25,309 bases of DNA. Origin: a virus. Taxonomy: Duplodnaviria > Caudoviricetes. A program made the translations under genes and the position numbers. The notes under the pieces are model-generated. The model saw only the letters and a program-made list of their open reading frames with translations. It had not been told where the DNA came from and searched no databases. Positions 1,138 to 21,205 of this stretch are shown here, in pieces. How positions within the stretch are numbered: position 1 is the stretch's first letter; every line of letters starts with the position of its first letter. Location of the stretch: positions 1-25,309 of IMG/VR virus record IMGVR_UViG_3300020045_004787. One strand, written 5' to 3'.

Positions 1138-1236
1138 TGTTATAATTAACAAGTGGCTAGGGCATCGAACCCGAAGTAGTCTTATCAACTATTGCCACTA
1201 AACTATTCGATAAGCCTAATGATAAAAGGTGTCAAA
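1138..1236 (+). promoter_or_regulatory. Extended -10 promoter plus structured leader RNA (copy 2)
   Basis: TGtTATAAT at 1138..1146; outer stem AGTGGC/GCCACT. Loop CTTATCA (1181..1187) is complementary to GATAAG (1209..1214) and TGATAA (1220..1225) next to the AAGG RBS. Confidence 0.75.
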
Positions 1237-2013
1237 ATGTATTTGTATAAAATCTCATTTCCTAAGCATTTAACAACTAAGTGCTATATTGGAATAACAT
1301 CACAAACATTAAAGAAAAGACTTAAAGGTCATTGCAGATTATCTAGCGATTCTCTTATTTCTAGGGCAATAAAAAAGCATGGAAAGAAAAATACTATTAT
1401 GTCTGTTATTGCAGAATGCGATAACTGGGAATTGTTGTGTCTTGCTGAAATGGAGGCTATTGAAAAGTTTAACTCCTTTGCTCCAAATGGTTACAACCTA
1501 ACTAAAGGCGGGGAAGGTCTTAATGGTCATGTGTTTACAGAATTGCATAGAAAAAGAATTTCTTTAGCATTAAAAGGTCGTGTTTTTTCGGACGATACAA
1601 GAATAATAATGTCTGAATCTGGAAAGAAAAAGATAATCACGACTGAGCATCGTAAAAGATTATTGGATTCCCAAAAGGGCGATAACCATCCTAATTTTGG
1701 GAAAAACTTATCTAGCGAAACAAAATTAAAAATATCAATCTCTTTGACTGGGAAAATGGCATCACTAGAGACAAGAAAAAAACAATCCATTGCTCATTCA
1801 AATATTTCAGACGAGCTAAGATTAAAATTATCTAGCGCGAACAGAAATCATCCAGCTATTTCAAAATCTGGATTTAAAGGAGTTTGCAAAACAAAAGAAG
1901 GTAATAAGTGGAGGGCTAGATGTACGGTAATGGGAAAAGAGAATGTCATTGGGTATTTTGATACGCCTGAATTAGCTTCTGAGGCGTATCAAAATTTTAT
2001 TGCTAATCTTTAG
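1237..2013 (+). CDS. Free-standing GIY-YIG homing endonuclease with NUMOD3-like repeats and C-terminal AP2 domain
   Basis: YLYKI...CYIGIT...R..H...E..I...NGYNLTKGGEG; repeats such as FTELHRKRIS and LSSETKLKIS; AP2 motif SKSGFKGV...KWRA...IGYFDTPELASEAY. Start ATG 1237 follows AAGGTG. Confidence 0.92.
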   Translation: MYLYKISFPKHLTTKCYIGITSQTLKKRLKGHCRLSSDSLISRAIKKHGKKNTIMSVIAECDNWELLCLAEMEAIEKFNSFAPNGYNLTKGGEGLNGHVFTELHRKRISLALKGRVFSDDTRIIMSESGKKKIITTEHRKRLLDSQKGDNHPNFGKNLSSETKLKISISLTGKMASLETRKKQSIAHSNISDELRLKLSSANRNHPAISKSGFKGVCKTKEGNKWRARCTVMGKENVIGYFDTPELASEAYQNFIANL

Positions 2014-5000
2014 CCAAACCGTTTATTAAACCGCTCAAGAACAACAATTTCCTGTTTTTCAAGACTATCAATCATCGCCTTATTACCTATGCTTCTAGCC
2101 TTATCCTCTCTGGTTCTTATTGCGTTTAGCTGCTTCTTTGTCATGTCTGCCATTTTATTAAGCCTTAACAAATCTCCACTATCGGCGCGTAACTCTTTAA
2201 CACCATCTTGGTTCTTTGCTGATTGATATACCTTAAGTTGTTCGTGTGCTTGCGATACTTCGTCATATTGTGCGTAGAACCTGCGGCGATAATCATCAAC
2301 AGTTGTGGCTTTGAAGAACGATTTAGCAATGGGTAGCTTTTCCTTGCTCACATCTTCACCATTAACTGCCATCGTAGCGTCATCAAACGAATCCGTAACG
2401 AATCTACCAGCACCACCAGCGATATAATTCACGGTGTTTTTTATAGTCTCTGGGCTAATATCAATCCACCCGCTTTTCGCTTCATCGCCGCCTGTCAGGC
2501 TGTTTAATCCTTTCGCTGCTATATCCTGCCATCCGCCGCGTGTTTTACGGTAAACTTTTTCACTGTCTGGTTGTGATTTTTTAAATGGCGAATCTGGCAT
2601 TAACGGCGTACCGAATGAGCCTTTATTAACCGCTGGCATAATAAACGGCTTAGCGAATGTTGGGGCAAATGCTACGATAGCATTATCAGACGATAAATCG
2701 CCCTGCGGTATTGGGTTGCCTATTGGTGAAAAGTTTCCCAAAAATGTTGATGCTAATTTCTTGCTGATTTTTTCAATGTCACCGCCATTGGCTACCTGAG
2801 CTAACGCCCTACCAATGTCTCTGAAAAATGAGAACCCATAAGGCAGTGGTATCGTTGCACGGTGTCCATCACCTAAATCAATTGAAATATTACGCTCTTT
2901 CTCATTGTCACTAATCAGATCATCATCGCCATCATCACCCGCTGACATTGCCGCCATAAATCCCAATGCAACTAATCCGCCAACTAATGCCTGTGCTTGC
3001 TTTTTATGTTTTGACTGGGTAAGGGTTTTAAATACGTTGGAATTGCCTTGAATATTTGCATTCGCAAACAAAAACATACTTCCTAACTGACTGCCATACT
3101 CACCCTTTTTTGTGAAATTAACTGTGACATTAGATGATAATTTAGCCGCTTGCGTGTCGCTATACCCTGCATTGATAGCTGCTTTAAATGTTGCTAGGCG
3201 TGTTGCACCCTCAAAAGCCGCGTTCAGGTGTTCGATAGCATCAAACAGCTTGTTATTTAACGCTCTAAACGCCGCCGACTTCATGGCTTCTTTGTAATTG
3301 CCAGAAGCTACTAGGCTACTAACTGACTCACCACCATTGCGCTGTAGTTCGCGGTGAATATCATCACTAATCTTTTCAAGGCTACCGATGTACGCAGTAC
3401 TTACTGAGCCACCAGCCGCAAGATAACGCTCAAGCATTGCCTGTTCTTCGGGTGATGACGCTGGTTTTTCTCTGGCATGTGCCATCATGGTACGCCAAGA
3501 TGAACCCCAGTTTTTCATTGCGCTTGCTGCAAGACTAACTCCCCCCTCACCAGTCAATACAATGCCCGCCGTCTGTACGTCACGGATAGGATTGATTAAA
3601 AAGAAAGCAGGGTTTTTAGCTGTCCACGCTTGACGCAAGAAGCTGTTAAACGTCTGTGCCGCTGCGAACACGCCATTATTAACATCACGGTCAAGTTTGT
3701 TAAATGACTGTAGCAATAACGGGTCTTTAATCTGTATGCGAACCTCCTTACCGTCTTTGATGTAACGCACTTCTTTTTCAGCATCAAAAGGCGCGGGGGT
3801 TAATCCCACTTTGTCATCGGATTTAATTATGTTTATTCGATAGTCTTTTCTATCCTGCCCGGTTCTCGCTATTTCAGCATCCCTGAATGTACGCATATCC
3901 TTGGCATTATCTGCTTTTCCGACAAATGAACCATTGTAGAAAAGAAAGAACTGCCGCTTTCCTTTGACCAGTGCCGGTTTAGTTTGCGCTACGCCCTTGG
4001 TGTAAATTTTATCATCGGGATTATCATCAACAAGATTACCTAATGTTTCAGCGACTTTTGTTTTTTCACTCCAAACAATAGCGCGTTCATGATCGCGTAG
4101 TATGTTCTCGAATATCTGACCTGCTTTAGATGATCTGCCTAGCGCACGTTTACCAAAACTTCTAGCCGTTGAGAACCCTAAACCTGTGCCATTGGTTTTA
4201 TTACCCGCTTCATCCAACACTTCAAATCCTTTCAGCGGCACATAGTTTGCGTAAGTATCGCGCATAGCCTGTGCCTGTTCGGGCGTGTAAACGCCTGTTG
4301 ATTCAAGAATATCGAGTGTTGAATTGGTTATGCCTTGCAAGTCTTTGGCAATGCGTTCAAGTTCTGCAAACTTAGAACCATAATCTTCCTGTAATTGCGT
4401 AACAGCAAAATCCGCCTGTGCGTCCGTCATCCCTGAACCACCATCGGTAGCAAAACGCGGGTTAATCTTTGCCATTTCAGCGTTGCGTTCTTTAGCGTGT
4501 CGGGCATAAAGCAACAATGCCACATCGTCTTTAGTCGCGGCAATGGCGGTCATGCGCTTAAATATCGGCTTAGTGACTGCTTGGTGATACTTGGCTACTC
4601 TATCAGCCGCTTTGTGGGGCATAAGCTCCATAGCGGTGTAAACGTCATTAGCATCATTGATAAATCCACCTGCTTTTTTAATGACGTTTTGCAGTACCGT
4701 CCAGCGGTTGTTTTCATCTTGCCATAGACGTTGCTGGTGCTGTAGTTTTGTTTCTGCTGGTAGCGTGTAGTTATCGCCTACGGTTGCATCACTAGCCATT
4801 GAATACCGAATATCAGGCGATTGCGTAGGCTCATCATTACTGGTCAACTTAGCCTGATTCGACTCAAAGACAATTGCGTACTTAGCGTCTGTCAGGTAAA
4901 TAGCATCAAAACCCTGCTTCTTTAGTTTATCGGCATAAGCCTTAGCTTCTTCGATGCTGTCAAACTGCGGCAATTGGTCAACAGTCATGCCCTTAACTTT

Positions 5001-8000
5001 CTGCGCCGATAAATAAAACTCACGAACATCTGATCCGTAATGCGTAGCAGTTTCTCGTTGTGGGGAAAAGAAAAAACCTAGCCCACTGGTTGAGTGGTTC
5101 GGTGTGCCAGTGCCTATCTTGGCATGACTGAATTCGTTAAAAGTGCTGTTTGAACCGTGGTAAAACTTAACTGGCTGACCATCTTTACCTGAGAATTTTG
5201 AGCCATTCCACCAGTCAAAGAAAGCTCTTGACCAGATTTTAGGGGCTTTTGAGAAACGGATGTCGTTGTTGTCTTGGCTAAATGCGCCTGTGTTGCCTGT
5301 GGCGGATTTTATTTGGTTTGGATTTGCGATAACTATTTCTTTAAATTCATGCGCCGACATATCACCAATAACATAGGAATCATAATTATTATCTACCCCC
5401 ATTTCTGGAAAACCAACATCATCAATCCAATGCTTATCTTCAAACACACTCAGATTTTTTTCAATCAATGGGTTTAATGACCTGATAAATACAGGCATCA
5501 CATTACCATTTTCTTTTATTTCTGCGTAACCAGACGCCTTTAATTTATCTCTTGATAAATATATGCCAACACCAAGAAAGCCATCTTTTTCTGATTTTTT
5601 GAATTCTGAAAAATCTGCGCCAGTGCCATGATAAACTACTAAAGGTTCGCCATTCTCATCAATTACACGAGATACGCCTGAATAATCACCGGTTTGATAG
5701 GCTTTATCGAAGTCACCAAACCACGCCTTAAATTCAGGAGTCCTAACCTGTGCGTGTTGCATAGCGTTTAATTTCGATGGCAAGCCATTAGGTGCGAGTA
5801 GTGGACTGGTTACAGTGTCTTTTTTGCTTGCCAGTAAATTAGGGCTATCGGCAAAGTCCGGGTCGAATGCGGCATCTGGACTACGAATATTGTTGGGGTT
5901 AAATACCGTTCTATTTATATGACCATTTTCTCTAGCATAATTATCTATATCATCTTCATCAATATCTTCGCCCGTCATATTGACTGCGATTCTGTCGGTA
6001 TATTGAATCCCTTGAATGCCTATGCTATCAAGAAAATAACTAGCCTCAAGGTCTCCATCAAATTCACCACCCATTAATGAAGCAATATCATAATACAATT
6101 CTTCACCAGTAACTCCTGATGATATTGATATGTTTGCTTCTTTTAGCACATTAATTACATCTTTACTTTGCTTACTTAATGGTAAATGCCAGTCAAGATA
6201 CACATCATTTTTTAAATATAAATTATATATCTTTTTCTTTTTATCGCCTAAATCATGCCAATAATCTTTGGCTGTATCTTTGGTTTTTGTTACATGAAAT
6301 CCATACCCAAAGCCTTGCCCACCCTCTCCATTGCCATAATTAGACATATCTATTACTGAGCCAAAATTATGCGAACCATGATAATAGTCTGTATCAACAT
6401 CAAAACCCATATCCTTAGCCCTAGCCATCCTAGCCTCTTGTGACATATCCAAGCCCTTAGCAACAGCGCGCAACCATTCCTCGGCTTCTCCCGTACTGCT
6501 ACCCTCATAGCCTTGTTGCTTAGCAAGCTTAATTGCATCACCGCTGCGCCCAACAGAATCAAATAGTAAATCATTCGGGGCAAATCTCAACGCACTAACC
6601 GCCATCCCCACCAAATCACTATCACTAATAGCAGTAACACGTCTAAACCACTCGGTACGCTGTACAGGCGGCAATGCTTTACCGATAGCGCGTAGTTTGT
6701 TTCTGAACCAGTTTAGGAATTTTTGGCTAAAAGACAATTTAGGATGATACTCAAGTAAATACGATATTACCTCGTTATTTACATCGTCAAGTGATACAAT
6801 AGATGGCAACAATACACCAATCTCACTTAGTGCATTGTCTAACTCAACATCATTATTAGGAATGACATTATGTGTACCAACCATTGTATCAAGTGCGGGG
6901 CTATTATTCCCGCTTCTCGTAAATTCTGTAGTAATTCCTGCTCTATCAGCTTTAGAAACTCCAACATTAGAACTGGTGTTGATGTTCCTTGTGGATGGTG
7001 CGGTGTCGTTATTTACGCCAGACCGTCCAGAATTAAAAGAGCTGGTGGCGTTGTATTTTGCTCTAAGCCTTGCACCATGCACTATCGCCATAAAGACACT
7101 ATCGGCACTGTTAATGGTGCTGGCTATAGGATTATTACGGTCAACGGTATTCAGGTCTACGCCCATAGACATATCATGTCGCAACATATCGGGCGTAAAC
7201 TGACGACTCACGAGCATATCCATCACGTCAACGGGGATAAACTCGATAATAGAATTGATAATCTTGTTATCTTGAGCAATTCTGCTCATAGCATCGAGCA
7301 TCATACCTTTATCGACACTGCCAGAGTTAAAAGCCTTAGAGATACTGGAATGTCCTTTAAGAGTATCGGAAAGGAACTTAATTGCAGTGCTGCTGGAGTC
7401 AAAACTGCTTTGGTTCGCGCTGGGCTTCATACCCCTGCTTACAGAAGAACCGTTTATGACTTTGAGTTGATCGAACAGCTTTTTAATAGTGGACTTAGCC
7501 GCAAGGATGTCGCCGCGAGAATAGGCGTTTCTGTTGACGCTCTCGACCATGCTATCAGCTATCGGAAGACTGGAAAGACCAAACGACTCTAACGCCCTTA
7601 CATAAGCATCTTGAACAAGCTTGCTAGACTTTCTCATTCTGGCAAGCTCTCCAAGAATATCTTGAAAGGCTTTGTCGTCTTTTCCTAAATTGAGTTGGTG
7701 GGATGCTATCTCATGTAGGGCTAATCCTAGTAAATCCTTATTCTTATCTATGTTATCAGCAATAAAATATGTTGTATCAGCACTCAACCCCTTTGAATTA
7801 GCCGATGTAGCATAAAACGCCTGAGCTTTTTCCATAACACCCATTGCAATTGCCTCCTCACTACTAATCACCTTAACCTTACCAGTAGCCATTAACAACT
7901 TAGTCCAGCCCCGTCCAAACTGCTTATCAAGCTGTGCGGTAAAGGATTGGGTGAATGAGGTTAGGGTGTGGGCGTTAGTTGATTGATTAGCTTTGCTGAA

Positions 8001-11000
8001 ATGCAAATCACTGAATTTATTTACCGCTTCCGCCCGTGCTTTTTCATCGCCGCGGTCATAGCGTTGAATATTGTTATCAAGTAATGTATCCTCATAAGCA
8101 TAACTTTCAGGGTGGTTATTATCTTCCGCATCTTCTAGTTCTTCGGCAACACTAGACAGTCCTCTGAGTATCGCTCTTTGTTTATCGGTTAAATTTCCAC
8201 CGTCTTCATATGCAGAAACAGCCGTTTGTATTTCTTTTACTGAAATATTGCCAGAATATTTATTGCCAGTGTTTTTATTAAGGGCAACGAACGCACCATC
8301 TTTAAACCAGTCTGGATTAGTCGATGGTGTTCTGCCGTTTATTTTACCGTTTTCATCGTATGTATATGATACACCGCCGCCGACAACAAGTTCATTGGCT
8401 AATGAAGATATTGCAGGGTGATAGGTTTCTGGCTTAGCTTGACTGGCTACCTTGCTTTCAATCGGTTCAGCATCATAACCCTCATACTCGGTTTTATCCT
8501 TAGACTCCCAAACACCATTCTCATTTTTTGCCACTGGCACACTATCGCCGTCATCATTGACAGTGTGGGTAGGATTAAATTGTGTAGCGGGTTCAGACTT
8601 AGCTTCACCCGCTTTATTTAGCACTTCGTTTTTGGTGGTCGTTTTTTCGCCATTGTTGCCTCCTGTGGTTGATGGTGTTACCGCTTGCGTGTCGGTTTCT
8701 TGCGTGGTTGCGTTCTGGCTTTGGTCATTGGTTGCCTGTGTGGGTTGTGACAATGGCTTTAAAATTGATTTTCTTTGTGGCATTACTTCGCCAAATAAAT
8801 ACTCATCCGCGTGGTCTTTTGTGGCGGCAGGATAACCATACTTTCTATTCTTATTTTTCTTGTCGTTGTACCTATCATAATCAGCTTGGAATATCCTTTT
8901 AGTTAAATCATCCCCTCTTGATTCAGCTTCTAAAATTGCATTTTCAATAAGCCAGTTATTTGTTTTTGCTACATCACGTCCAAAAATAGCCGTTCTGTCT
9001 GCATTTTCTTTATGCTCGTAAAGGTTGAATTTAGGGTATGGAGTTGTTTTTCTGCCTGTTGATGTTAGAACAACTTGCCCAGTAGCCATTTCGCCACCAA
9101 CGACACCCGACTTTTCTTCCTGTGCGCTAGTGATACCAACTGCGGGTGAATTAGTATCTGTTCCTTGTGTTGCTGGTTGTGCTGTATCTGTTGGCGTATC
9201 ATTGGTTAATGACGTTTTATTTCTAATTACCAAGCCGCGTTCTTTAGCTTCTGCTATGGCTTCATTATGCGCTTCTCGTGATTCATTCGATGGCTGTAAT
9301 GGCGCGCTAAACTCCTCAATCGTTAGTCCGTGGTCTGGAATTTCAGTTTTTGTACTTAGTTTCTCGCCATTATTTAACGCCGTAACAATGCGGTTATCGT
9401 ATTCATCCTGTGCTTTTCTGGTAAATTCCGTTGTGTCTCGCTGTTGCTCGGTAGCTGTTCTGGGTTTTTTACCAGCTTTTCTGTTTTCAGTATTTACCCA
9501 TTCCTTAACGAAAGCATCTTTATTGCCTTTAGGTGTTTTGCCGCTAGGCTTTACCGCCGCTGTCTGCGTAGAAACCTTGGCATCACTGGACGAAACACTC
9601 GGAACTTCTGCCGATTGTTGTGCGCTATCCGTCTTATTCTGTCCTGTACGAACTTTGGAAGCCTTAGTTGGCTCGTCCTGTGTAACAGTTGGTGCTTGAG
9701 TGGGTTCTGTGGATATGTTTGCATTTACAATGCTCTCGACTTCGCTTTGAATTTCATGAATGGGTTTATTGGCGGTCTCTACGCCAACAGTCGGCGCGAT
9801 ACGAAGCAAATCATCGGCGTGTTTTGGGATAAGCGTTTTTGTTTCGATCGCCCTGTCGATTTCTGCCAGTGTAACCGCTGCTTGTTGTACGGATTCTGGG
9901 CGCGGCTTAAACCCGCCACGTTTAGTAGTTTGATTTATTGTGTTTGTGTTCGCCACATTATCATCACGCTTTGCATCTATTTCAGCAACCTTAGCGGAAA
10001 CATCTGTGTTAAATTTTTCGTCAGTGGCGCGTTGATTATCGGCTTGTGATTGCTTAGGTGAATCGATTGCTTGGCTATCAGTATTAGTTACTTGCTGAGC
10101 ATTACCAACAATTGGTTGTAATGTCGATACGGTATCAAGATTAACGGGGCTTGGTTGTACATCTTGCGCTGTACCACCTGTACCGCCGCCTACTCCTGAG
10201 CCACCCGAAACACTATCAGCCTTAATAGTATCAGCCCTATCTTGTGCAACCTTTGCATTTGCCGCTGCTGCCGCTGAACCTAGTGTGTTGCCTTGCGCTT
10301 GTTGGCTTTGATGTTCCTGTACAGCTGTATCGGCTTCGGCTTGTGCCTGTTCTACAATAGGGTTAATTGTTGGTGCTGATTCTGATTCCGTTGCTGTCGT
10401 AGTCCCTGCTGGTTTCTGTGGCAATAAAGCACCTGCACCACCAAACGCACCCATAACACCGCCTGAAATACCACCAACAACACCGGCGTTTAATGCGCCT
10501 TCATTGACATCTTGATTAGGGTCAACATAATCCTTAGTAGCCTGATTAGTTGTTTTTTGCTCAAAATAACTTTGTGGAGCTTCCTGTCCTGCTTCTGACG
10601 CTATGCCTTTGACTGTGGACTTTAAAAATCCATCAGCTACTTCACCTATAACAGGCTTAGCTACCGACCTATTTAATACACCCAATACGCCACCGCCAGT
10701 AACCGCAGACAATCCACCGGTTTTTATCGCCGTGTCCTTGAAAATATCGCTCTGACCTTTATTAATTAAGGCTTCTTTTGCCGCTTCTGGGTCATTGCCA
10801 TTATCAGCAAGGGCTTTATTCCAAGCTGGATGCTGCTTAAATACCTCTACTGGTTTGGCGCGTTGCTCATGCCCCCACTGCTCTGCATTTTGTGCGCCTG
10901 AGAATACGCCTTCCGATGCACCAAACCCTAAGCCGCTACCGATAACAGGAGCTAATGCCTTCCCTACTCCTGCCGCAGTTGCCGCGCTAGTCCCCAGTGC

Positions 11001-11498
11001 CGCTAATGGCGCACCTGCTACGCCCATAGCTACTGTACTTGGGATTGATGGTAATACATTTGCTTCTAATGAGCGAAAGCCAAAATCAGGATTAACCGAT
11101 AATGCGCCATCATCCGCTTCATTAATCAACGGCTGTTTTTGTGCTTCCTGCATTTGTGGCGTTAAATGACTTTGCAGTCTAGCCTCTTGAGGCAAACTAG
11201 ATTCCTGAATAGTTCTGCCAAGCTGCGGGGCTATGCCTGATTTTTCTAAGCCATAGCCAACAACGCCACCTACACCCTCAACGCCCTGCAACAACAATCT
11301 TCCAGTATCGCCTAGGTTTTCACTTAGTGTAGGCTGTGCTAATTGTGGTGCGACAGGTTTTGCTTCTGGTATTTTGTAGTCAGCAATCCAGTCTGGCAAT
11401 CCGTTATCAATAGCGTGCTGCTGTGCGTCACTAACAGACGTGTCATTTTTTAAGTAATCATCAACCCATGAATAAGGCTTAGCATTATTAGTTACCAT
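2010..11498 (-). CDS. Large polyvalent virion/ejected protein (3162 aa): Gly/Ala-rich N-terminus, metallopeptidase-like domain, three ART-PolyVal-like modules, LPD38-like C-terminus
   Basis: HEIASH at 7698..7715. YYHGS (6372..6386), VYHGT (5622..5636) and FYHGS (5151..5165) sit in ART-PolyVal-type context (PEFKAWFGD...GEPLVVYHGT...PNQIKSATGN). The C-terminus has NFTKKG...FANANIQG, IPLPYG and DISPE. Last gene of the virion module. Confidence 0.9.
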   Translation of the reverse strand: MVTNNAKPYSWVDDYLKNDTSVSDAQQHAIDNGLPDWIADYKIPEAKPVAPQLAQPTLSENLGDTGRLLLQGVEGVGGVVGYGLEKSGIAPQLGRTIQESSLPQEARLQSHLTPQMQEAQKQPLINEADDGALSVNPDFGFRSLEANVLPSIPSTVAMGVAGAPLAALGTSAATAAGVGKALAPVIGSGLGFGASEGVFSGAQNAEQWGHEQRAKPVEVFKQHPAWNKALADNGNDPEAAKEALINKGQSDIFKDTAIKTGGLSAVTGGGVLGVLNRSVAKPVIGEVADGFLKSTVKGIASEAGQEAPQSYFEQKTTNQATKDYVDPNQDVNEGALNAGVVGGISGGVMGAFGGAGALLPQKPAGTTTATESESAPTINPIVEQAQAEADTAVQEHQSQQAQGNTLGSAAAAANAKVAQDRADTIKADSVSGGSGVGGGTGGTAQDVQPSPVNLDTVSTLQPIVGNAQQVTNTDSQAIDSPKQSQADNQRATDEKFNTDVSAKVAEIDAKRDDNVANTNTINQTTKRGGFKPRPESVQQAAVTLAEIDRAIETKTLIPKHADDLLRIAPTVGVETANKPIHEIQSEVESIVNANISTEPTQAPTVTQDEPTKASKVRTGQNKTDSAQQSAEVPSVSSSDAKVSTQTAAVKPSGKTPKGNKDAFVKEWVNTENRKAGKKPRTATEQQRDTTEFTRKAQDEYDNRIVTALNNGEKLSTKTEIPDHGLTIEEFSAPLQPSNESREAHNEAIAEAKERGLVIRNKTSLTNDTPTDTAQPATQGTDTNSPAVGITSAQEEKSGVVGGEMATGQVVLTSTGRKTTPYPKFNLYEHKENADRTAIFGRDVAKTNNWLIENAILEAESRGDDLTKRIFQADYDRYNDKKNKNRKYGYPAATKDHADEYLFGEVMPQRKSILKPLSQPTQATNDQSQNATTQETDTQAVTPSTTGGNNGEKTTTKNEVLNKAGEAKSEPATQFNPTHTVNDDGDSVPVAKNENGVWESKDKTEYEGYDAEPIESKVASQAKPETYHPAISSLANELVVGGGVSYTYDENGKINGRTPSTNPDWFKDGAFVALNKNTGNKYSGNISVKEIQTAVSAYEDGGNLTDKQRAILRGLSSVAEELEDAEDNNHPESYAYEDTLLDNNIQRYDRGDEKARAEAVNKFSDLHFSKANQSTNAHTLTSFTQSFTAQLDKQFGRGWTKLLMATGKVKVISSEEAIAMGVMEKAQAFYATSANSKGLSADTTYFIADNIDKNKDLLGLALHEIASHQLNLGKDDKAFQDILGELARMRKSSKLVQDAYVRALESFGLSSLPIADSMVESVNRNAYSRGDILAAKSTIKKLFDQLKVINGSSVSRGMKPSANQSSFDSSSTAIKFLSDTLKGHSSISKAFNSGSVDKGMMLDAMSRIAQDNKIINSIIEFIPVDVMDMLVSRQFTPDMLRHDMSMGVDLNTVDRNNPIASTINSADSVFMAIVHGARLRAKYNATSSFNSGRSGVNNDTAPSTRNINTSSNVGVSKADRAGITTEFTRSGNNSPALDTMVGTHNVIPNNDVELDNALSEIGVLLPSIVSLDDVNNEVISYLLEYHPKLSFSQKFLNWFRNKLRAIGKALPPVQRTEWFRRVTAISDSDLVGMAVSALRFAPNDLLFDSVGRSGDAIKLAKQQGYEGSSTGEAEEWLRAVAKGLDMSQEARMARAKDMGFDVDTDYYHGSHNFGSVIDMSNYGNGEGGQGFGYGFHVTKTKDTAKDYWHDLGDKKKKIYNLYLKNDVYLDWHLPLSKQSKDVINVLKEANISISSGVTGEELYYDIASLMGGEFDGDLEASYFLDSIGIQGIQYTDRIAVNMTGEDIDEDDIDNYARENGHINRTVFNPNNIRSPDAAFDPDFADSPNLLASKKDTVTSPLLAPNGLPSKLNAMQHAQVRTPEFKAWFGDFDKAYQTGDYSGVSRVIDENGEPLVVYHGTGADFSEFKKSEKDGFLGVGIYLSRDKLKASGYAEIKENGNVMPVFIRSLNPLIEKNLSVFEDKHWIDDVGFPEMGVDNNYDSYVIGDMSAHEFKEIVIANPNQIKSATGNTGAFSQDNNDIRFSKAPKIWSRAFFDWWNGSKFSGKDGQPVKFYHGSNSTFNEFSHAKIGTGTPNHSTSGLGFFFSPQRETATHYGSDVREFYLSAQKVKGMTVDQLPQFDSIEEAKAYADKLKKQGFDAIYLTDAKYAIVFESNQAKLTSNDEPTQSPDIRYSMASDATVGDNYTLPAETKLQHQQRLWQDENNRWTVLQNVIKKAGGFINDANDVYTAMELMPHKAADRVAKYHQAVTKPIFKRMTAIAATKDDVALLLYARHAKERNAEMAKINPRFATDGGSGMTDAQADFAVTQLQEDYGSKFAELERIAKDLQGITNSTLDILESTGVYTPEQAQAMRDTYANYVPLKGFEVLDEAGNKTNGTGLGFSTARSFGKRALGRSSKAGQIFENILRDHERAIVWSEKTKVAETLGNLVDDNPDDKIYTKGVAQTKPALVKGKRQFFLFYNGSFVGKADNAKDMRTFRDAEIARTGQDRKDYRINIIKSDDKVGLTPAPFDAEKEVRYIKDGKEVRIQIKDPLLLQSFNKLDRDVNNGVFAAAQTFNSFLRQAWTAKNPAFFLINPIRDVQTAGIVLTGEGGVSLAASAMKNWGSSWRTMMAHAREKPASSPEEQAMLERYLAAGGSVSTAYIGSLEKISDDIHRELQRNGGESVSSLVASGNYKEAMKSAAFRALNNKLFDAIEHLNAAFEGATRLATFKAAINAGYSDTQAAKLSSNVTVNFTKKGEYGSQLGSMFLFANANIQGNSNVFKTLTQSKHKKQAQALVGGLVALGFMAAMSAGDDGDDDLISDNEKERNISIDLGDGHRATIPLPYGFSFFRDIGRALAQVANGGDIEKISKKLASTFLGNFSPIGNPIPQGDLSSDNAIVAFAPTFAKPFIMPAVNKGSFGTPLMPDSPFKKSQPDSEKVYRKTRGGWQDIAAKGLNSLTGGDEAKSGWIDISPETIKNTVNYIAGGAGRFVTDSFDDATMAVNGEDVSKEKLPIAKSFFKATTVDDYRRRFYAQYDEVSQAHEQLKVYQSAKNQDGVKELRADSGDLLRLNKMADMTKKQLNAIRTREDKARSIGNKAMIDSLEKQEIVVLERFNKRFG
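6792..6869 (+). promoter_or_regulatory. Putative extended -10 promoter and RBS of the nested HNH gene
   Basis: TGaTACAAT at 6792..6800; AGGA about 8 nt before ATG 6870. Confidence 0.5.
6870..7592 (+). CDS. HNH endonuclease (two CxxC...CSxxC zinc fingers, HNH, two HTH-like repeats), nested antisense within the giant gene
   Basis: CIKC..FCSNSC and CGWC..FCSKPC; YAHRHIM...HIHHVNGDKLDNRIDNL...H; GMSFKSIGKELNCS and GLSRKDVAARIGVS. Confidence 0.9.
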   Translation: MCTNHCIKCGAIIPASRKFCSNSCSISFRNSNIRTGVDVPCGWCGVVIYARPSRIKRAGGVVFCSKPCTMHYRHKDTIGTVNGAGYRIITVNGIQVYAHRHIMSQHIGRKLTTHEHIHHVNGDKLDNRIDNLVILSNSAHSIEHHTFIDTARVKSLRDTGMSFKSIGKELNCSAAGVKTALVRAGLHTPAYRRTVYDFELIEQLFNSGLSRKDVAARIGVSVDALDHAISYRKTGKTKRL

Positions 11499-13531
11499 TA
11501 TCTCTGTCCTACTGCTAGTTTGTTAAGTGCGTCTATTGCTTGCTGTCTTCTTGTCGGGTCTTTTTCGTTTTCAGCTGCGTACTGTAATTTTTTCATATTT
11601 TCATTGGCTGCCGCTTGGCTACGCTCCTGCATTACCTGTCTAGGCGACTTGTAAATAACGCTTCCATCATCATTTTCGCCAACCTTTACTGGAGTATCTA
11701 GCTTTACATCGCGGTCTTTATCTTTGTTAAGTTGTTCTAGCTGTGCTTTAGACGATTCTGATTGTGCGTTTTGCTGTGCCGACTCCGCAGCTTTCTGGTC
11801 TTTAAGCTTGCCATAATTAGCCGTATCAGACTGTAATAACTGATTCCACGCTTCTTCACTCTGCTTCTGTTTTTCAGTCCGCTGGTACTGACTTTCATCT
11901 TGCGCTTGATTATTATTCGCCTGAGCCGCAGAACGGTCTTGCGTGTCTTTACCTAAAATAGTGTCCATACTCTTTTGGGCATACTTTGTTGCAAGAGCAT
12001 CGCTCATATTGCCAGTGCCTCTATTCATAGTAGCAAGGTTACGCGACACCTGTTCATTCAATGCCGCCTGATTTTCTGGGCTAAGAATACCCTGTATCTG
12101 TGGTGCAACAAAACCGCGTTGCTTTGGCTGTGGGGCTGTGGGAGTTAATAGCTGTGGGGCTGGTTGCTGTACAAGCCTTCCATTATTGATAGATGGTGGC
12201 GGTGGTGTTTCAGTTTGCGCCTGTTTGTCTCTAGCTTGCATCGCTTCTTCCATTGTCGGTGCAAGAGCTTGACCGCCTTCGCCGCCCATGCCAACACTAC
12301 CGCCTTGTCCTGACCCTCCCCCAGTATTTACCTGTGGTAGAGGTATTCCAGTTCTCCCTGCCGCTTCCAGTTGTGCTTGAGTGGCAAATTTACCTGCACC
12401 CGCATTAGGCGTATCATTTGCCATTTGTCTTTGAGAAAGATCTCGACTATCAGCTTCCGCACTCGAAACCTTAGTGTCGTACTTAGGTCTTGACTGGTTT
12501 CCAGCTAATAGATTATTAACAGGTGGTTGCACGGATACAGTTGGAATGCTGGGTTGCGCCGAACCATCAACAGGCAATCCTTGTTGCATACGCAATTGTA
12601 TTTCTGGGGTAATTATCGATGGTTCTTGATGGGCTTTGTATTGCGCTTCGGTTTGAACTTGGGCAACTCCTTCTTGGATTGCACGGCGGGACTGAGGTGT
12701 AGAGTTGTTTGCACTCAATAACGGCACGGGCGCGTCCACTGCTGTCATCGGTCTATCGCTGTACGATATGTTGCCGTTTTTTTGAACCTGTTTATTAAAA
12801 CCCGCTGGCATAGTTTCATAATCCAACTTACTTGGGTTGTTTATTTTTGCAGTTGGGAGTAATGACGGGGCTGTACTTCCCGATGTCTGTTGCTCTCCAG
12901 TTGCTACATTTGACCGCACACCGCCTGTAGGGGTAAATTCTGGAACATTAGCTACAGGATTGGGAATTCCACGCACCATATTAGCCACTTCGTCATTGGT
13001 TGCTACTGGTTTAGGTACACTTGCTTGGTTTGTTGGTGGTAAAACTGAAGGTGCAGGTGCTGTAGATAATGCCTTGCTAATTAATGCTGGGGAACTATTA
13101 TCAATTACAGCTCCTATTGTGTCGCCAACCCCCTCTCTTACTTTATTCGTTACATCTTGTCCCATTAATGACAATGGGTTTAAGTTTGTTTTGGCTAAAG
13201 GCTCAATGATGTTTCTTGAAGCCGCATCAACAATTTTATTGCCTGCATTATCATGACCACCATAATACCAGTCTTTTATCCCACTTGCGCCAGCTGCCGC
13301 ATGAAGCACCCCATCAACTACCTTTGTCTCTGCACCTTTAGGAGCATAAATAGCATTAAATTCATTAATACTCATACCCATGAGTTTTGCGAACGCTTCC
13401 GCCGCCCCTGCATTGAGAATAGCCTCCTTATTTGCTACCAGTGCGGGGTATTTATCTTTGGTCACAGAACCGCTACCGTCAATAGTGCCTGTGAGTGAGG
13501 TTGCCAATTGTGGTGCGCGTTGAGTCTTCAT
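11498..13531 (-). CDS. Probable internal virion/DNA ejection protein (677 aa)
   Basis: Q/P/A-rich low complexity with a coiled-coil-like C-terminus. N-terminal GSGSVTKDKYPALVANKEAILNA resembles the GxGT..D.IPA.LS.GE.V motif of phage ejection/tape proteins. Stop overlaps the giant gene start (TAATG). Confidence 0.7.
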   Translation of the reverse strand: MKTQRAPQLATSLTGTIDGSGSVTKDKYPALVANKEAILNAGAAEAFAKLMGMSINEFNAIYAPKGAETKVVDGVLHAAAGASGIKDWYYGGHDNAGNKIVDAASRNIIEPLAKTNLNPLSLMGQDVTNKVREGVGDTIGAVIDNSSPALISKALSTAPAPSVLPPTNQASVPKPVATNDEVANMVRGIPNPVANVPEFTPTGGVRSNVATGEQQTSGSTAPSLLPTAKINNPSKLDYETMPAGFNKQVQKNGNISYSDRPMTAVDAPVPLLSANNSTPQSRRAIQEGVAQVQTEAQYKAHQEPSIITPEIQLRMQQGLPVDGSAQPSIPTVSVQPPVNNLLAGNQSRPKYDTKVSSAEADSRDLSQRQMANDTPNAGAGKFATQAQLEAAGRTGIPLPQVNTGGGSGQGGSVGMGGEGGQALAPTMEEAMQARDKQAQTETPPPPSINNGRLVQQPAPQLLTPTAPQPKQRGFVAPQIQGILSPENQAALNEQVSRNLATMNRGTGNMSDALATKYAQKSMDTILGKDTQDRSAAQANNNQAQDESQYQRTEKQKQSEEAWNQLLQSDTANYGKLKDQKAAESAQQNAQSESSKAQLEQLNKDKDRDVKLDTPVKVGENDDGSVIYKSPRQVMQERSQAAANENMKKLQYAAENEKDPTRRQQAIDALNKLAVGQR

Positions 13532-13963: not shown

Positions 13964-14042
13964 TGGTGCGCCCTCTTGGGAGTCGAACCCTAGAGTCAGC
14001 CGATTATGAGTCGGTTGCTTTCACCACTTAAGCTAAGGGCGC
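13964..14042 (-). tRNA. tRNA with CAT anticodon, most likely tRNA-Ile2 (alternatively Met)
   Basis: GCGCCCT TAGCTTAAGTGGTGAAAGC A ACCGA CTCATAA TCGGC TGACT CTAGGG TTCGACT CCCAAG AGGGCGC ACCA. CCA is encoded, and the CCCTTAGCT / GACTCATAATCG context resembles bacterial Ile2 tRNAs. Confidence 0.9.
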
Positions 14043-15065: not shown

Positions 15066-16127
15066 TTAAGCAGAAATCGATTCGCCATAGCTCCAAGATT
15101 TACCCGTACTAAACGACTGACTAAGATTAATACCATTCATCCAGTTAGCCCCGACTTGACCATTCACGGCGGCAATGGATTTTATCTTCTCAATGCCAAG
15201 CTGTGCATTGCTTGTGTAATGCGCCTCAATCAGTTTGATTTTTTCCAGTGAAATGTTGGTCAACTGGACATTCATTTCATTAACCTGCCTGTACTGCTCC
15301 ATCCTGAACTTGGCTTCTTCGATAGTGACACCAGTTAGTGATGAATACGCTTGAATCTCGCTTGCATAGATGTCGATAAACCCCTTGTTAATATCAATAT
15401 AAAGCATTGCCGTGTCGATAACGGTTTTTTTCTGTGAGTCATACAGAATTAGTTCATTGCCTTCACTGGCTTGTTTCAAATCAAGCAATCTGGAATTGAG
15501 CGATAACAATTGATCCAATGCCTTTTGCTTAATAGCCAGCTCAACATCAATTTGTTTAATCATGATGTCACGCCTAATGCTGGAAAGCTTGCCTTTCTTC
15601 TCCAGTTCAAAACGCATAAATACAGCTTGGTCTTGACCGCTTGCTGCTTCAAACCCCATTGATAAATTACTGGATAAATAATTTTGATAGCCTGTACGCT
15701 GTAACTTTGTTTCGTCATCTATGGATTTCGCATAGATAGCGTCAAACATCACACCCATCACGCCGTAAGGATTGGCTAATAGCGATTCAATCTCAGAGAT
15801 TAGTCGATTAATGACACCAATAATCATATCCTTATCGGCAATTACCGTAGTCCATAAATAAGGTGCAGCTGGCATAGCTCCAATTGGCACATCTAACAAT
15901 AACGGTTTTGTTGGGATAGCTGGTAAAGCACCTAGTGCAATATCAGACGGGTTTATTAATGTAGTGGTAAGTCCTGAAAAATCGGGGAAAGGCGTTAATT
16001 CAGCCGTCATCCCGTTGACTGCATTTGTTGCCGCTGTTAGTGCTTTGACCGCCTCATCAAATAACCGATTAAGATATGAGTCGTTTACCGACGTAATGGA
16101 ATTTAAAAATTGATGCTGTGCTGACAT
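15066..16127 (-). CDS. Probable virion structural/ejection protein, helical C-terminal half (353 aa)
   Basis: Long ORF translationally coupled to the upstream gene within the virion module; no catalytic motif recognised. Confidence 0.6.
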   Translation of the reverse strand: MSAQHQFLNSITSVNDSYLNRLFDEAVKALTAATNAVNGMTAELTPFPDFSGLTTTLINPSDIALGALPAIPTKPLLLDVPIGAMPAAPYLWTTVIADKDMIIGVINRLISEIESLLANPYGVMGVMFDAIYAKSIDDETKLQRTGYQNYLSSNLSMGFEAASGQDQAVFMRFELEKKGKLSSIRRDIMIKQIDVELAIKQKALDQLLSLNSRLLDLKQASEGNELILYDSQKKTVIDTAMLYIDINKGFIDIYASEIQAYSSLTGVTIEEAKFRMEQYRQVNEMNVQLTNISLEKIKLIEAHYTSNAQLGIEKIKSIAAVNGQVGANWMNGINLSQSFSTGKSWSYGESISA

Positions 16128-17596: not shown

Positions 17597-17776
17597 ATGA
17601 GCGTAGAAATTTATGTGTTATTAGTTTTATCAATCGCTGGTTTTTCAGTCCTGTCGATTAACTTCCGCACCGCATTGGCGTTGCATCAGTTTCGTATTAA
17701 AGAAATGCAAATATCTCCGCTGTTTTTTGCGTGGATTATCTGCCTGTCATTCATAATCTCGTTCATACAATCATGA
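17597..17776 (+). CDS. Small two-TM membrane protein (59 aa)
   Basis: GGAG RBS and ATG 17597; two hydrophobic stretches; stop overlaps the pilin start (ATGA). Confidence 0.7.
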   Translation: MSVEIYVLLVLSIAGFSVLSINFRTALALHQFRIKEMQISPLFFAWIICLSFIISFIQS

Positions 17777-18357
17777 AGGCGCGCAACGGCTTTACATTGC
17801 TTGAGCTTACGGCGGCAATAGGTATTACCTCAGCTTTAGCCATCATTGCCGCGCCGTCATTTATCGATATGCTTAGCAATAGCAGGATGACTGCTATCAA
17901 TAATGAGGTTGCAGGTGCTTTGAATTTTACGCGTAGCGAGGCAATAAAACGCAGCACTACCATAGGCGCATATCTTAATCAGCAATACCTTGATAAGGAT
18001 GGGATTACCACTAAGGAAGCGTCTATTATTGTGAAGCAGACAGACTGCAATAGTGTTGACTGTTTTTTAAGGATTTATGATAATCTCCCTGAGTTTTTCA
18101 CAGTATCAGCAGTTAAATTACAGGGTATAAATGAAAATAACGTCACCCCAGTCCAGATAAATTCCATTAATTTTTCAAGTCAAGGCACAACAGGCGCAAT
18201 CGAGTATGTGAAAATATGCTCTCAAGGCAAAATCAAAGTGGTGTCGATTAGTCATCTTGGCAGGATTTCATCCGTCAAAGACACCAATAACAATGGAACT
18301 CTTGATATTGTGATAAACGAAACATTGATAGAAATACCACCATGCCCGATACAGTAA
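17773..18357 (+). CDS. FimT/FimU/GspH-family type IV minor pilin-like protein
   Basis: Prepilin cleavage/methylation site MKARNG^FTLLEL, hydrophobic helix ending AAPSF, family motif ALNFTRSEAIKR, and C-terminal V.IS..GR. Confidence 0.92.
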   Translation: MKARNGFTLLELTAAIGITSALAIIAAPSFIDMLSNSRMTAINNEVAGALNFTRSEAIKRSTTIGAYLNQQYLDKDGITTKEASIIVKQTDCNSVDCFLRIYDNLPEFFTVSAVKLQGINENNVTPVQINSINFSSQGTTGAIEYVKICSQGKIKVVSISHLGRISSVKDTNNNGTLDIVINETLIEIPPCPIQ

Positions 18358-20635: not shown

Positions 20636-21205
20636 TGTTATGTCCTGTAGATAAATTACTGCGCTTTGTTGGGCGTTATTTGCCAGTCTTCGGCTAAAAT
20701 ATCAGTTTGTGACGCTAACCAGCCAACCACAACTTTATCATCTGCCGTTTTCATGCAAATAGAGTCGCAAATTGGAAGACCATTTTCCCCGTCTCCGTAA
20801 ACACTGCTCATTGATTCTTGTATATCTATGCCTCGCATCAAAAACAGCCACATACCTTTGCCATTCCAGCCAGTACGCGATACCATCAATCCTTTTTTCA
20901 AGGCTTCGATTGCCAATCCAAACGTCATTTGTTCAATGGGTCTGTATGCGTCTTGAAATACATCCGCTGGACTCCACGCACGATAAGCAGGGGCATTGTC
21001 ACGCTGTTTATATTCAACAAGATAGCCTGAACAATCGCCATCTTCATTTGTTAAGCCTTCATAGCCTACAGTACGACCAAGAACTTGCTGAGCTTGTAAT
21101 AGTCCCATTATTTGAGCTTTTATGATTTTTACACCGATAAATTTTTGCTCAATGTTTAATATTTCGTCTTCTATGTAATTTATTACTGTCATTGTTATGT
21201 CCTGT
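20629..21205. repeat. Perfect 20-bp direct repeat flanking the DUF2829 gene
   Basis: ctgtcattgttatgtcctgt at 20629..20648 and 21186..21205. Confidence 0.95.
20656..21192 (-). CDS. DUF2829 (Tad2-like) domain protein with extra N-terminal domain
   Basis: MTFGLAIEALKKG..V.R.GWNGKGMWL...MKTAD...GWLASQTDILAEDW; N-domain FIGVKIIKA...GYLVEY...WSPADVF..AYR. Confidence 0.88.
   Translation of the reverse strand: MTVINYIEDEILNIEQKFIGVKIIKAQIMGLLQAQQVLGRTVGYEGLTNEDGDCSGYLVEYKQRDNAPAYRAWSPADVFQDAYRPIEQMTFGLAIEALKKGLMVSRTGWNGKGMWLFLMRGIDIQESMSSVYGDGENGLPICDSICMKTADDKVVVGWLASQTDILAEDWQITPNKAQ

Follow-up and report, generated by a model that had tools for sequence, protein, structure and literature searches.

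Results

The giant gene and its neighbours

The window, i.e. the whole stretch of 25,309 nucleotides analyzed here, is a phage late region, in which profile searches recovered capsid, head-closure and adaptor genes. The capsid and head-closure genes sit upstream of a giant gene on the minus strand (2010..11498), whose 3162-aa product contains no Cys. Giant and multidomain, with three ART-PolyVal domains, an LPD38 domain and late-gene neighbours, this product has the characteristics of a phage polyvalent protein and is likely packaged and then ejected. Two neighbouring proteins, of 677 aa (11498-13531, minus strand) and 353 aa (15066-16127, minus strand), are Cys-free like the giant protein, which suggests a set of ejection proteins. 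Giant virion RNA polymerases of the N4 type are also described as lacking Cys, and a need for this during tail and periplasm passage has been proposed (PMC3715699, PMC3915230).

Polyvalent proteins with zincin-like metallopeptidase (MPTase) domains have been described (Iyer et al. 2017, PMC5512222). In the giant protein, a HEIASH motif of the HExxxH type (7698..7715, minus strand; residues 1262-1267) and the Glu of EVISY (residue 1576, codon at 6773), which belongs to the helix segment EVISYLLE (6750..6773, minus strand), mark a presumed domain of this kind. H, E, H and the downstream Glu are invariant in all 12 aligned alleles. The zincin-like label is presumed from these motifs; no Pfam family scored above cut-off for the domain, and the host-domain profile had no sequence match in the PDB. 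An AlphaFold2 model of the domain with its insert was uninformative (mean pLDDT 41.5, pTM 0.25).

Elsewhere, the window carries a tRNA-Met (CAT) gene (13964-14042, minus strand), a gene with a Tad2-like anti-Thoeris domain (20656-21192, minus strand; PF11195, E 1e-23) and, backwards in the late region, a FimT/GspH-like pilin gene (17731-18357, plus strand; N_methyl and GspH matches). A free-standing GIY-YIG/NUMOD3/AP2 endonuclease gene (1192-2013, plus strand) is convergent on the giant gene, the two stop codons overlapping by 4 nt. It contains 23 TTA/CTA/TCA codons and its antisense frame is closed.

An HNH gene nested backwards and in register

An intact HNH endonuclease gene (6870..7592, plus strand) lies wholly inside the giant gene, on the opposite strand, as an earlier note on this DNA had described. 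Its 240-aa product has two Cys-rich treble-clef-like repeats, an HNH_3 core and two HTH. PF13392 (HNH_3) matched residues 96-141 with 43.5 bits (cut-off 24.8; E 2e-11), and the active-site pattern H118, H119, N131, H140 and H144 is intact, these residues presumably having the roles known from colicin-type HNH nucleases. The gene covers giant-gene codons 1303-1543 in exact register, its TAA being the TTA of codon 1303.

The inserted element as a whole (6776..7592) amounts to about 270 giant-gene codons, where the empty allele has some 11 residues. It is flanked by HEIASH and the EVISY Glu, again in agreement with the earlier note. The boundary at the HNH stop (7592) is sharply defined, and the one on the promoter side is placed loosely, at about 6776-6803. 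The HNH ORF and its leader occupy the entire insert. A transposon or insertion sequence was ruled out, as no repeat pair links the two ends of the insert and the HNH gene is its sole ORF.

The promoter and ribosome-binding site proposed for the HNH gene are present as candidates. The sequence TGATACAAT (6792..6800, plus strand) lies 78 nt upstream of the HNH start and reads I-V-S in the giant-gene frame; the candidate -10 recurs 75 nt upstream of the HNH start in loci L004 and L008 (handles in L or P are ours). A sigma-70 scan omitted the site because it has no -35 box, so that it is at most an extended -10 candidate. A candidate Shine-Dalgarno (SD) motif, AGGA (6858..6861, plus strand), stands 8 nt before the ATG, with GGA invariant in four of four aligned leaders. 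The antisense of the -10 box gives an I-[IV]-[SPT] peptide past the HNH start in the giant-gene frame of the window, L004, L008, L088 and P0009. Elsewhere in giant phage proteins, peptides of this kind may point to concealed antisense promoters.

A long antisense ORF is by itself weak evidence here, since the giant gene holds a second TTA/CTA/TCA-free run of 224 codons (residues 484-708; 4 Leu, 14 Ser; p ~5e-4, uncorrected). The corresponding in-register antisense ORF (9025-9699, plus strand), opposite a segment of the giant gene with few Leu codons, is probably a shadow ORF. The stop-free run under the HNH gene is far stronger (13 Leu, 39 Ser; 2e-10), and its Pfam match, selection and recurrence rule out a chance antisense ORF.

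Empty and filled alleles

Homologues of the giant protein, gathered by a region search (8 other proteins) and locus scans, include nine without the insert, i.e. the empty alleles that the earlier note had proposed to look for, and eight besides the window that are filled at this site. The distance from the HE motif to the downstream E is 314 aa in the window and 273-361 aa across five filled alleles (window, P0002, L004, L008/L090 and L088), compared to 52-55 aa in seven empty alleles (L101-L104 and P0006-P0008) and 77 aa in two others (P0004 and P0005). P0013-P0016 are filled at the identical site by protein alignment. In all relatives with DNA, the host frame is open across the insert, without stops, as expected if it is read through. 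The loop of P0004 and P0005, 24 aa longer than in the other empty alleles, is similar to both element ends and may be a deletion scar.

The filled alleles do not form one clade on a host-flank tree (four changes; monophyly rejected, AU p=0.0016), calculated from 14 rows and 154 columns under LG+G4, without the mixture model; polyvalent genes, moreover, undergo recombination. On it, the window and P0002 are sister to the empty L101 and L102. On a quick HNH tree whose backbone is weak (2 of 56 branches starred), the four same-site HNHs are one group (SH-aLRT 91), and L004 has L088 as its sister (97), unlike their hosts. Since the same-site HNHs are merely about 50% identical, no recent homing event was caught. 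The patchy distribution of filled and empty alleles fits homing, but it also fits repeated loss.

Codon exclusion and the very likely translation of the insert

A hand count in the earlier note had given 13 Leu and 20 Ser codons in the HNH gene, none of them TTA, CTA or TCA. The count was exact, and the avoidance is significant (0/33; p=1.4e-7, from the codon use of 14 other ORFs in the window). It extends to 16 nested loci, with TTA+CTA at 0/237 (57 expected) and TCA at 0/260 (65 expected), where expectations were taken from the codon use of each host gene itself. Beyond stops, ACA (0/167; 44 expected) and GCA (0/167; 47 expected) are also absent, together 0/334 against 91. Either codon in the HNH frame places a Cys in the host frame, and the flanking host residues of these loci contain 13 Cys in 24,844. 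Eight of the 16 loci came from HNH-frame similarity alone, and a held-out element, L108, retrieved through a DNA pattern, had 0/24 host-Cys codons.

Codons that give Trp or Tyr in the host frame are scarce in nested HNHs (CCA 5/74, ATA 12/290, GTA 11/179), whereas AGA, CGA, GGA and CAA, which give Ser or Leu, are undepleted. The filter therefore tracks the host residue and not A at the third position. ACA and GCA are used freely by control genes, with 94/347 in co-oriented HNHs, 27/51 in co-oriented HNHs of the same subtree (n=5) and 52/147 in HNHs nested on the same strand. Together, the codon comparisons and controls rule out both a broad bias against codons ending in A and a peculiarity of the lineage as the source of Cys exclusion. 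The absence of host-Cys codons in nearly Cys-free hosts indicates that the insert is very likely translated and retained rather than removed by splicing, and suggests that it travels with the ejected protein.

Searches for splicing point in the same direction. Pfam profiles detected no intein family or Hint domain in the insert or the giant protein, and the insert has neither Cys nor a terminal His-Asn. No group I or II intron matched at Rfam gathering or E-value thresholds (one chance match, E 4.8), the Rfam scan of the window, L004 and L005 returned a tRNA alone, and no Rfam family of HEARO or other RNA-associated HNH matched. Contigs from six DNA runs, which contained 5-6% of the sequence words, were fragments of relatives, and no junction skipping the insert was seen among them. 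Ribosome bypass of the T4 gene 60 type, which needs a stop codon at take-off, was also rejected, as it leaves the Cys exclusion unexplained. Taken at the level of codons and profiles, the giant gene is very likely read through the insert without splicing.

Selection acts on the HNH frame

Across four same-site alleles, the HNH frame is under purifying selection (pN 0.34-0.38 vs pS 0.61-0.73), compared to pN 0.40-0.46 vs pS 0.39-0.49 in the host frame. Host-frame identity (0.28-0.34) equals or slightly exceeds a null set by the HNH alone (0.27-0.31). In a filled relative, X1, 43 codons changed (among the differences listed, 40/142 plus 40/45), 25 of them silent in the HNH frame and 11 in the host frame. 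Among these listed differences, no change creates a stop in either frame or a host Cys, and a single 12-nt net deletion preserves both frames. The C-terminal part of X1 has no frame asymmetry (6 vs 5 silent of 12 codons, among the differences listed). In the flanks, 15 of 20 changed codons of X1 are silent, likewise among the differences listed. The loop that the earlier note had called neutral appears so in one respect, the identity of its residues being unconstrained, yet it excludes Cys and is depleted in Trp and Tyr, so that it is not fully neutral.

A double hairpin over the HNH leader

On the host-mRNA strand, the region 6776-6900 folds at z -5.5. It contains a covarying double hairpin (6805..6874, minus strand) with stems at 6874-6841 and 6839-6805 and 6-nt loops, the first of which overlaps the complement of the candidate SD. 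Five leaders share the two stems of 13-14 bp and the 6-nt loops, with 90% of cells paired. Two-sided changes occur in 14 of 27 pairs (0 of 500 shuffles as high), a test inflated by relatedness and by deriving the structure from the same five sequences. The 31 G-U cells, against 5 A-C, assign the structure to the host strand. An RBS hairpin on the HNH strand, like that of mobE, was unsupported (z 0.09).

The pattern of hairpin 1 retrieved L108, an additional nested element with both stems; three of the seven pattern matches (L107, L109 and L110) were dismissed as chance. With a covariance model over 99 sources, six elements with the double hairpin were found, and it is absent in L088, at the same site, and in the other nested loci searched. 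A 15-nt inverted repeat (6792-6806/6877-6891) pairs the -10 region with HNH codons 3-8, and makes an outer stem on the host strand in the window, L008 and L108. The double hairpin spans the strand complementary to the HNH leader, so that its likeliest, putative role would be to control how the sense and antisense RNAs pair.

Related elements in other genes

The antisense peptide of the window matches 105 protein clusters (50% identity), of which 86 are at least 1000 aa (median 2206). These are protein-level matches; intact HNHs were established for 17 nested loci with DNA, window included. The antisense segment contains 0 Cys in 19,633 residues in 93 large proteins, and two or more copies occur in 5 of 108 proteins scanned. 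No match to the peptide was found among 423-2000-aa proteins (word index), GenBank phages, the ESM Atlas or Pfam. Single-protein HNH scans of viral contigs and GTDB genomes gave no close relative, and the HNH profile had no sequence match in the PDB.

A scan for HNH loci covered 600 stretches, 414 of which were confirmed. The best 80 of the 414 yielded 79 distinct loci, L039 being dropped as identical to L038. Among those 79, eight HNHs are nested antisense and in register, in ORFs of more than 1000 codons, and eight are nested in other frames, seven of them resembling ShiLan (see Discussion). L006 and L097 (the same place as L056) were ruled out as nested loci; they are free-standing HNHs with antisense stops. 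Related HNHs occupy many further sites in giant proteins.

Some loci differ in kind. In L005 (5965-6459) and P0009 (about 3172-3347), an antisense HNH occupies the position expected for the core of an ART-PolyVal-like repeat, with the N-terminal motif of the repeat on one side and its C-terminal motif on the other. The ShiLan-like set with HNHs on the same strand in the +1 frame, in ORFs of 500-1600 codons (L017, L020, L021, L023, L038, L045, L083 and L002), includes an annotated methylase of cyanophage Cr-LKS3. In L079 (2408-3979), the HNH is antisense in a non-register frame of a DNA-methylase-like ORF, and the insert is Cys-rich.

Backwards HNH genes are also found between operon genes. Of nine HNHs with both flanks on the opposite strand, six are free of antisense-stop codons (0.8 expected), compared to none of 25 co-oriented ones (Fisher p=6e-5), where orientation comes from a crude ORF map, three opposite-flank loci break the rule and the remaining loci are mixed or unclassified. 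The filler ORFs of L007, L025, L033 and L034 start, with an SD-like motif, at most three codons from the HNH stop, and their own stops overlap or abut the next gene. In L076 (around 2923-3480), the N-terminus of the downstream gene is duplicated ahead of the backwards HNH, and the gene itself begins anew shortly past the filler stop. Intergenic fillers retain Cys (19/111) and are scattered over the HNH tree. On general grounds, such filler ORFs may avoid transcriptional polarity. The backwards pilin gene of the window, with 8 antisense-stop codons, has no full filler frame and is a counter-example to this idea for non-HNH genes.

Discussion

A backwards HNH gene lies in register within a presumed metallopeptidase domain of a giant phage protein. 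We regard it as probable that the giant gene, very likely read straight through, keeps a filler of about 270 residues and that the nuclease likely homes. Ribosomes would translate through the antisense insert without splicing, and the filler would be retained in a Cys-free ejected protein comparable to N4-type virion RNA polymerases, with the protease presumably still active. The nuclease would be expressed from its own predicted promoter and spread to empty alleles by homing, while the hairpin may control pairing between the two overlapping mRNAs. The nesting is real, read-through is strongly supported, and homing is likely.

The nuclease could instead be a settled or domesticated passenger that no longer homes but is still read through. 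It would pass down together with the host gene, be moved around by ordinary recombination and be lost time and again. Such a history is unlikely, but it has the most in its favour among the alternatives: same-site HNHs have diverged to about 50% identity, P0004 and P0005 resemble deletion scars, and the sister relationship of the window and P0002 makes at least that step vertical. However, the uniform spacing of 52-55 aa in seven empty alleles would require repeated clean loss, the HNH tree conflicts with the host tree, and related HNHs sit at many other sites in giant proteins.

Two further explanations fare worse. Removal or cutting of the translated insert from the protein, by cryptic intein-like splicing or polyprotein autoproteolysis, or inactivation of the protease by it, seems quite improbable. 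An insert of 270 aa between presumed metal ligands invites the thought, autoprocessing has been proposed for polyvalent MPTases (PMC5512222), and antisense endonucleases are known within inteins (bioRxiv 10.1101/2025.01.02.630785). Yet there is no Hint domain, the insert is Cys-free and has no His-Asn end, and Cys exclusion suggests that it travels with the ejected protein. Moreover, H, E, H and E are invariant, the flank of a filled allele is under purifying selection, and variable inserts between these two helices were noted in PMC5512222. Still less probable is that the host mRNA loses the segment as an unrecognized self-splicing intron whose 3′ structure includes the double hairpin. Although a conserved, covarying RNA structure does lie on the host-mRNA strand at the 3′ end of the insert, no Rfam intron matched at gathering or E-value thresholds, the 5′ junction has no notable structure (z -1.0) and the hairpin is lacking in most nested elements. 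Nor would an intron need to keep host-frame stop and Cys codons out of all 16 loci.

The closest known system is ShiLan, a hidden out-of-frame HNH in mycobacteriophage DNA methylases (Arsenault et al. 2025, PMC11855218). In both cases, a zinc-finger HNH is nested in a phage gene that keeps its reading frame, neither an intron nor an intein was detected, the distribution is patchy and the insert is predicted to loop out; the two nucleases are homologous (38% over residues 37-151). ShiLan (L001 in our set) lies on the same strand in the +1 frame, has no detectable RBS and occupies a dispensable methylase. The window HNH, in contrast, runs antisense to its host in exact register, is preceded by a candidate promoter and RBS, and sits in a virion polyvalent protein between presumed metal ligands. 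Its element also excludes Cys and carries a double hairpin on the host strand, and the two HNHs fall in different parts of a weakly supported HNH tree. Relative to the hidden-HNH insertions reported in 2025, the window element is a variant on the opposite strand. The mechanism suggested in the earlier note withstood the sequence-based checks, but its proposal of another route for homing endonucleases is not new in principle, as a hidden HNH on the same strand of an open phage gene had already been described (PMC11855218), and so had antisense endonuclease genes within inteins (bioRxiv 10.1101/2025.01.02.630785).

Two other systems share single features with the window. Genes for LAGLIDADG or VSR-like endonucleases can lie antisense within inteins, with the host frame opposite them open and translated (Gosselin et al., bioRxiv 10.1101/2025.01.02.630785). 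There, the antisense peptide is spliced out, whereas the window has an HNH nuclease and no splicing domain was found. Free-standing homing endonucleases such as mobE in Aeh1 nrdA and mobA in T4 gene 60 (PMC2988022) are likewise HNHs in functionally important parts of phage genes, without intron or intein. These split their hosts into separate polypeptides, whereas in the window one frame runs through. The main text of PMC5512222 does not contain the words "antisense", "homing" or "opposite strand", and the window insert matches no Pfam family. In a literature search covering few subscription journals and no supplements, we found no paper on read-through of an antisense in-register HNH without an intein.

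More tentatively, and with somewhat less conviction than would tip the balance, these elements may represent a widespread stealth homing lineage for giant Cys-free ejection proteins. Their antisense would be pre-adapted as a Cys-free filler, a "shadow domain" in at least 100 clusters, able to enter catalytic domains. The hairpin of one subfamily would govern nuclease expression, and the operon-strand rule would extend to coupled filler ORFs that avoid polarity.

The window locus provides a natural example of dual coding over a long stretch in exact register. As a warning for annotation, the "domain" that recurs across at least 105 protein clusters is the shadow of an antisense gene missed by gene callers. 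Exclusion of Cys from the host frame offers a sequence-only test that separates read-through from RNA splicing, and the paired empty and filled alleles bring homing, tolerance by the protease and antisense control within reach of direct tests. The locus also points to a way in which selfish nucleases could sit deep inside large phage genes with no need for splicing.
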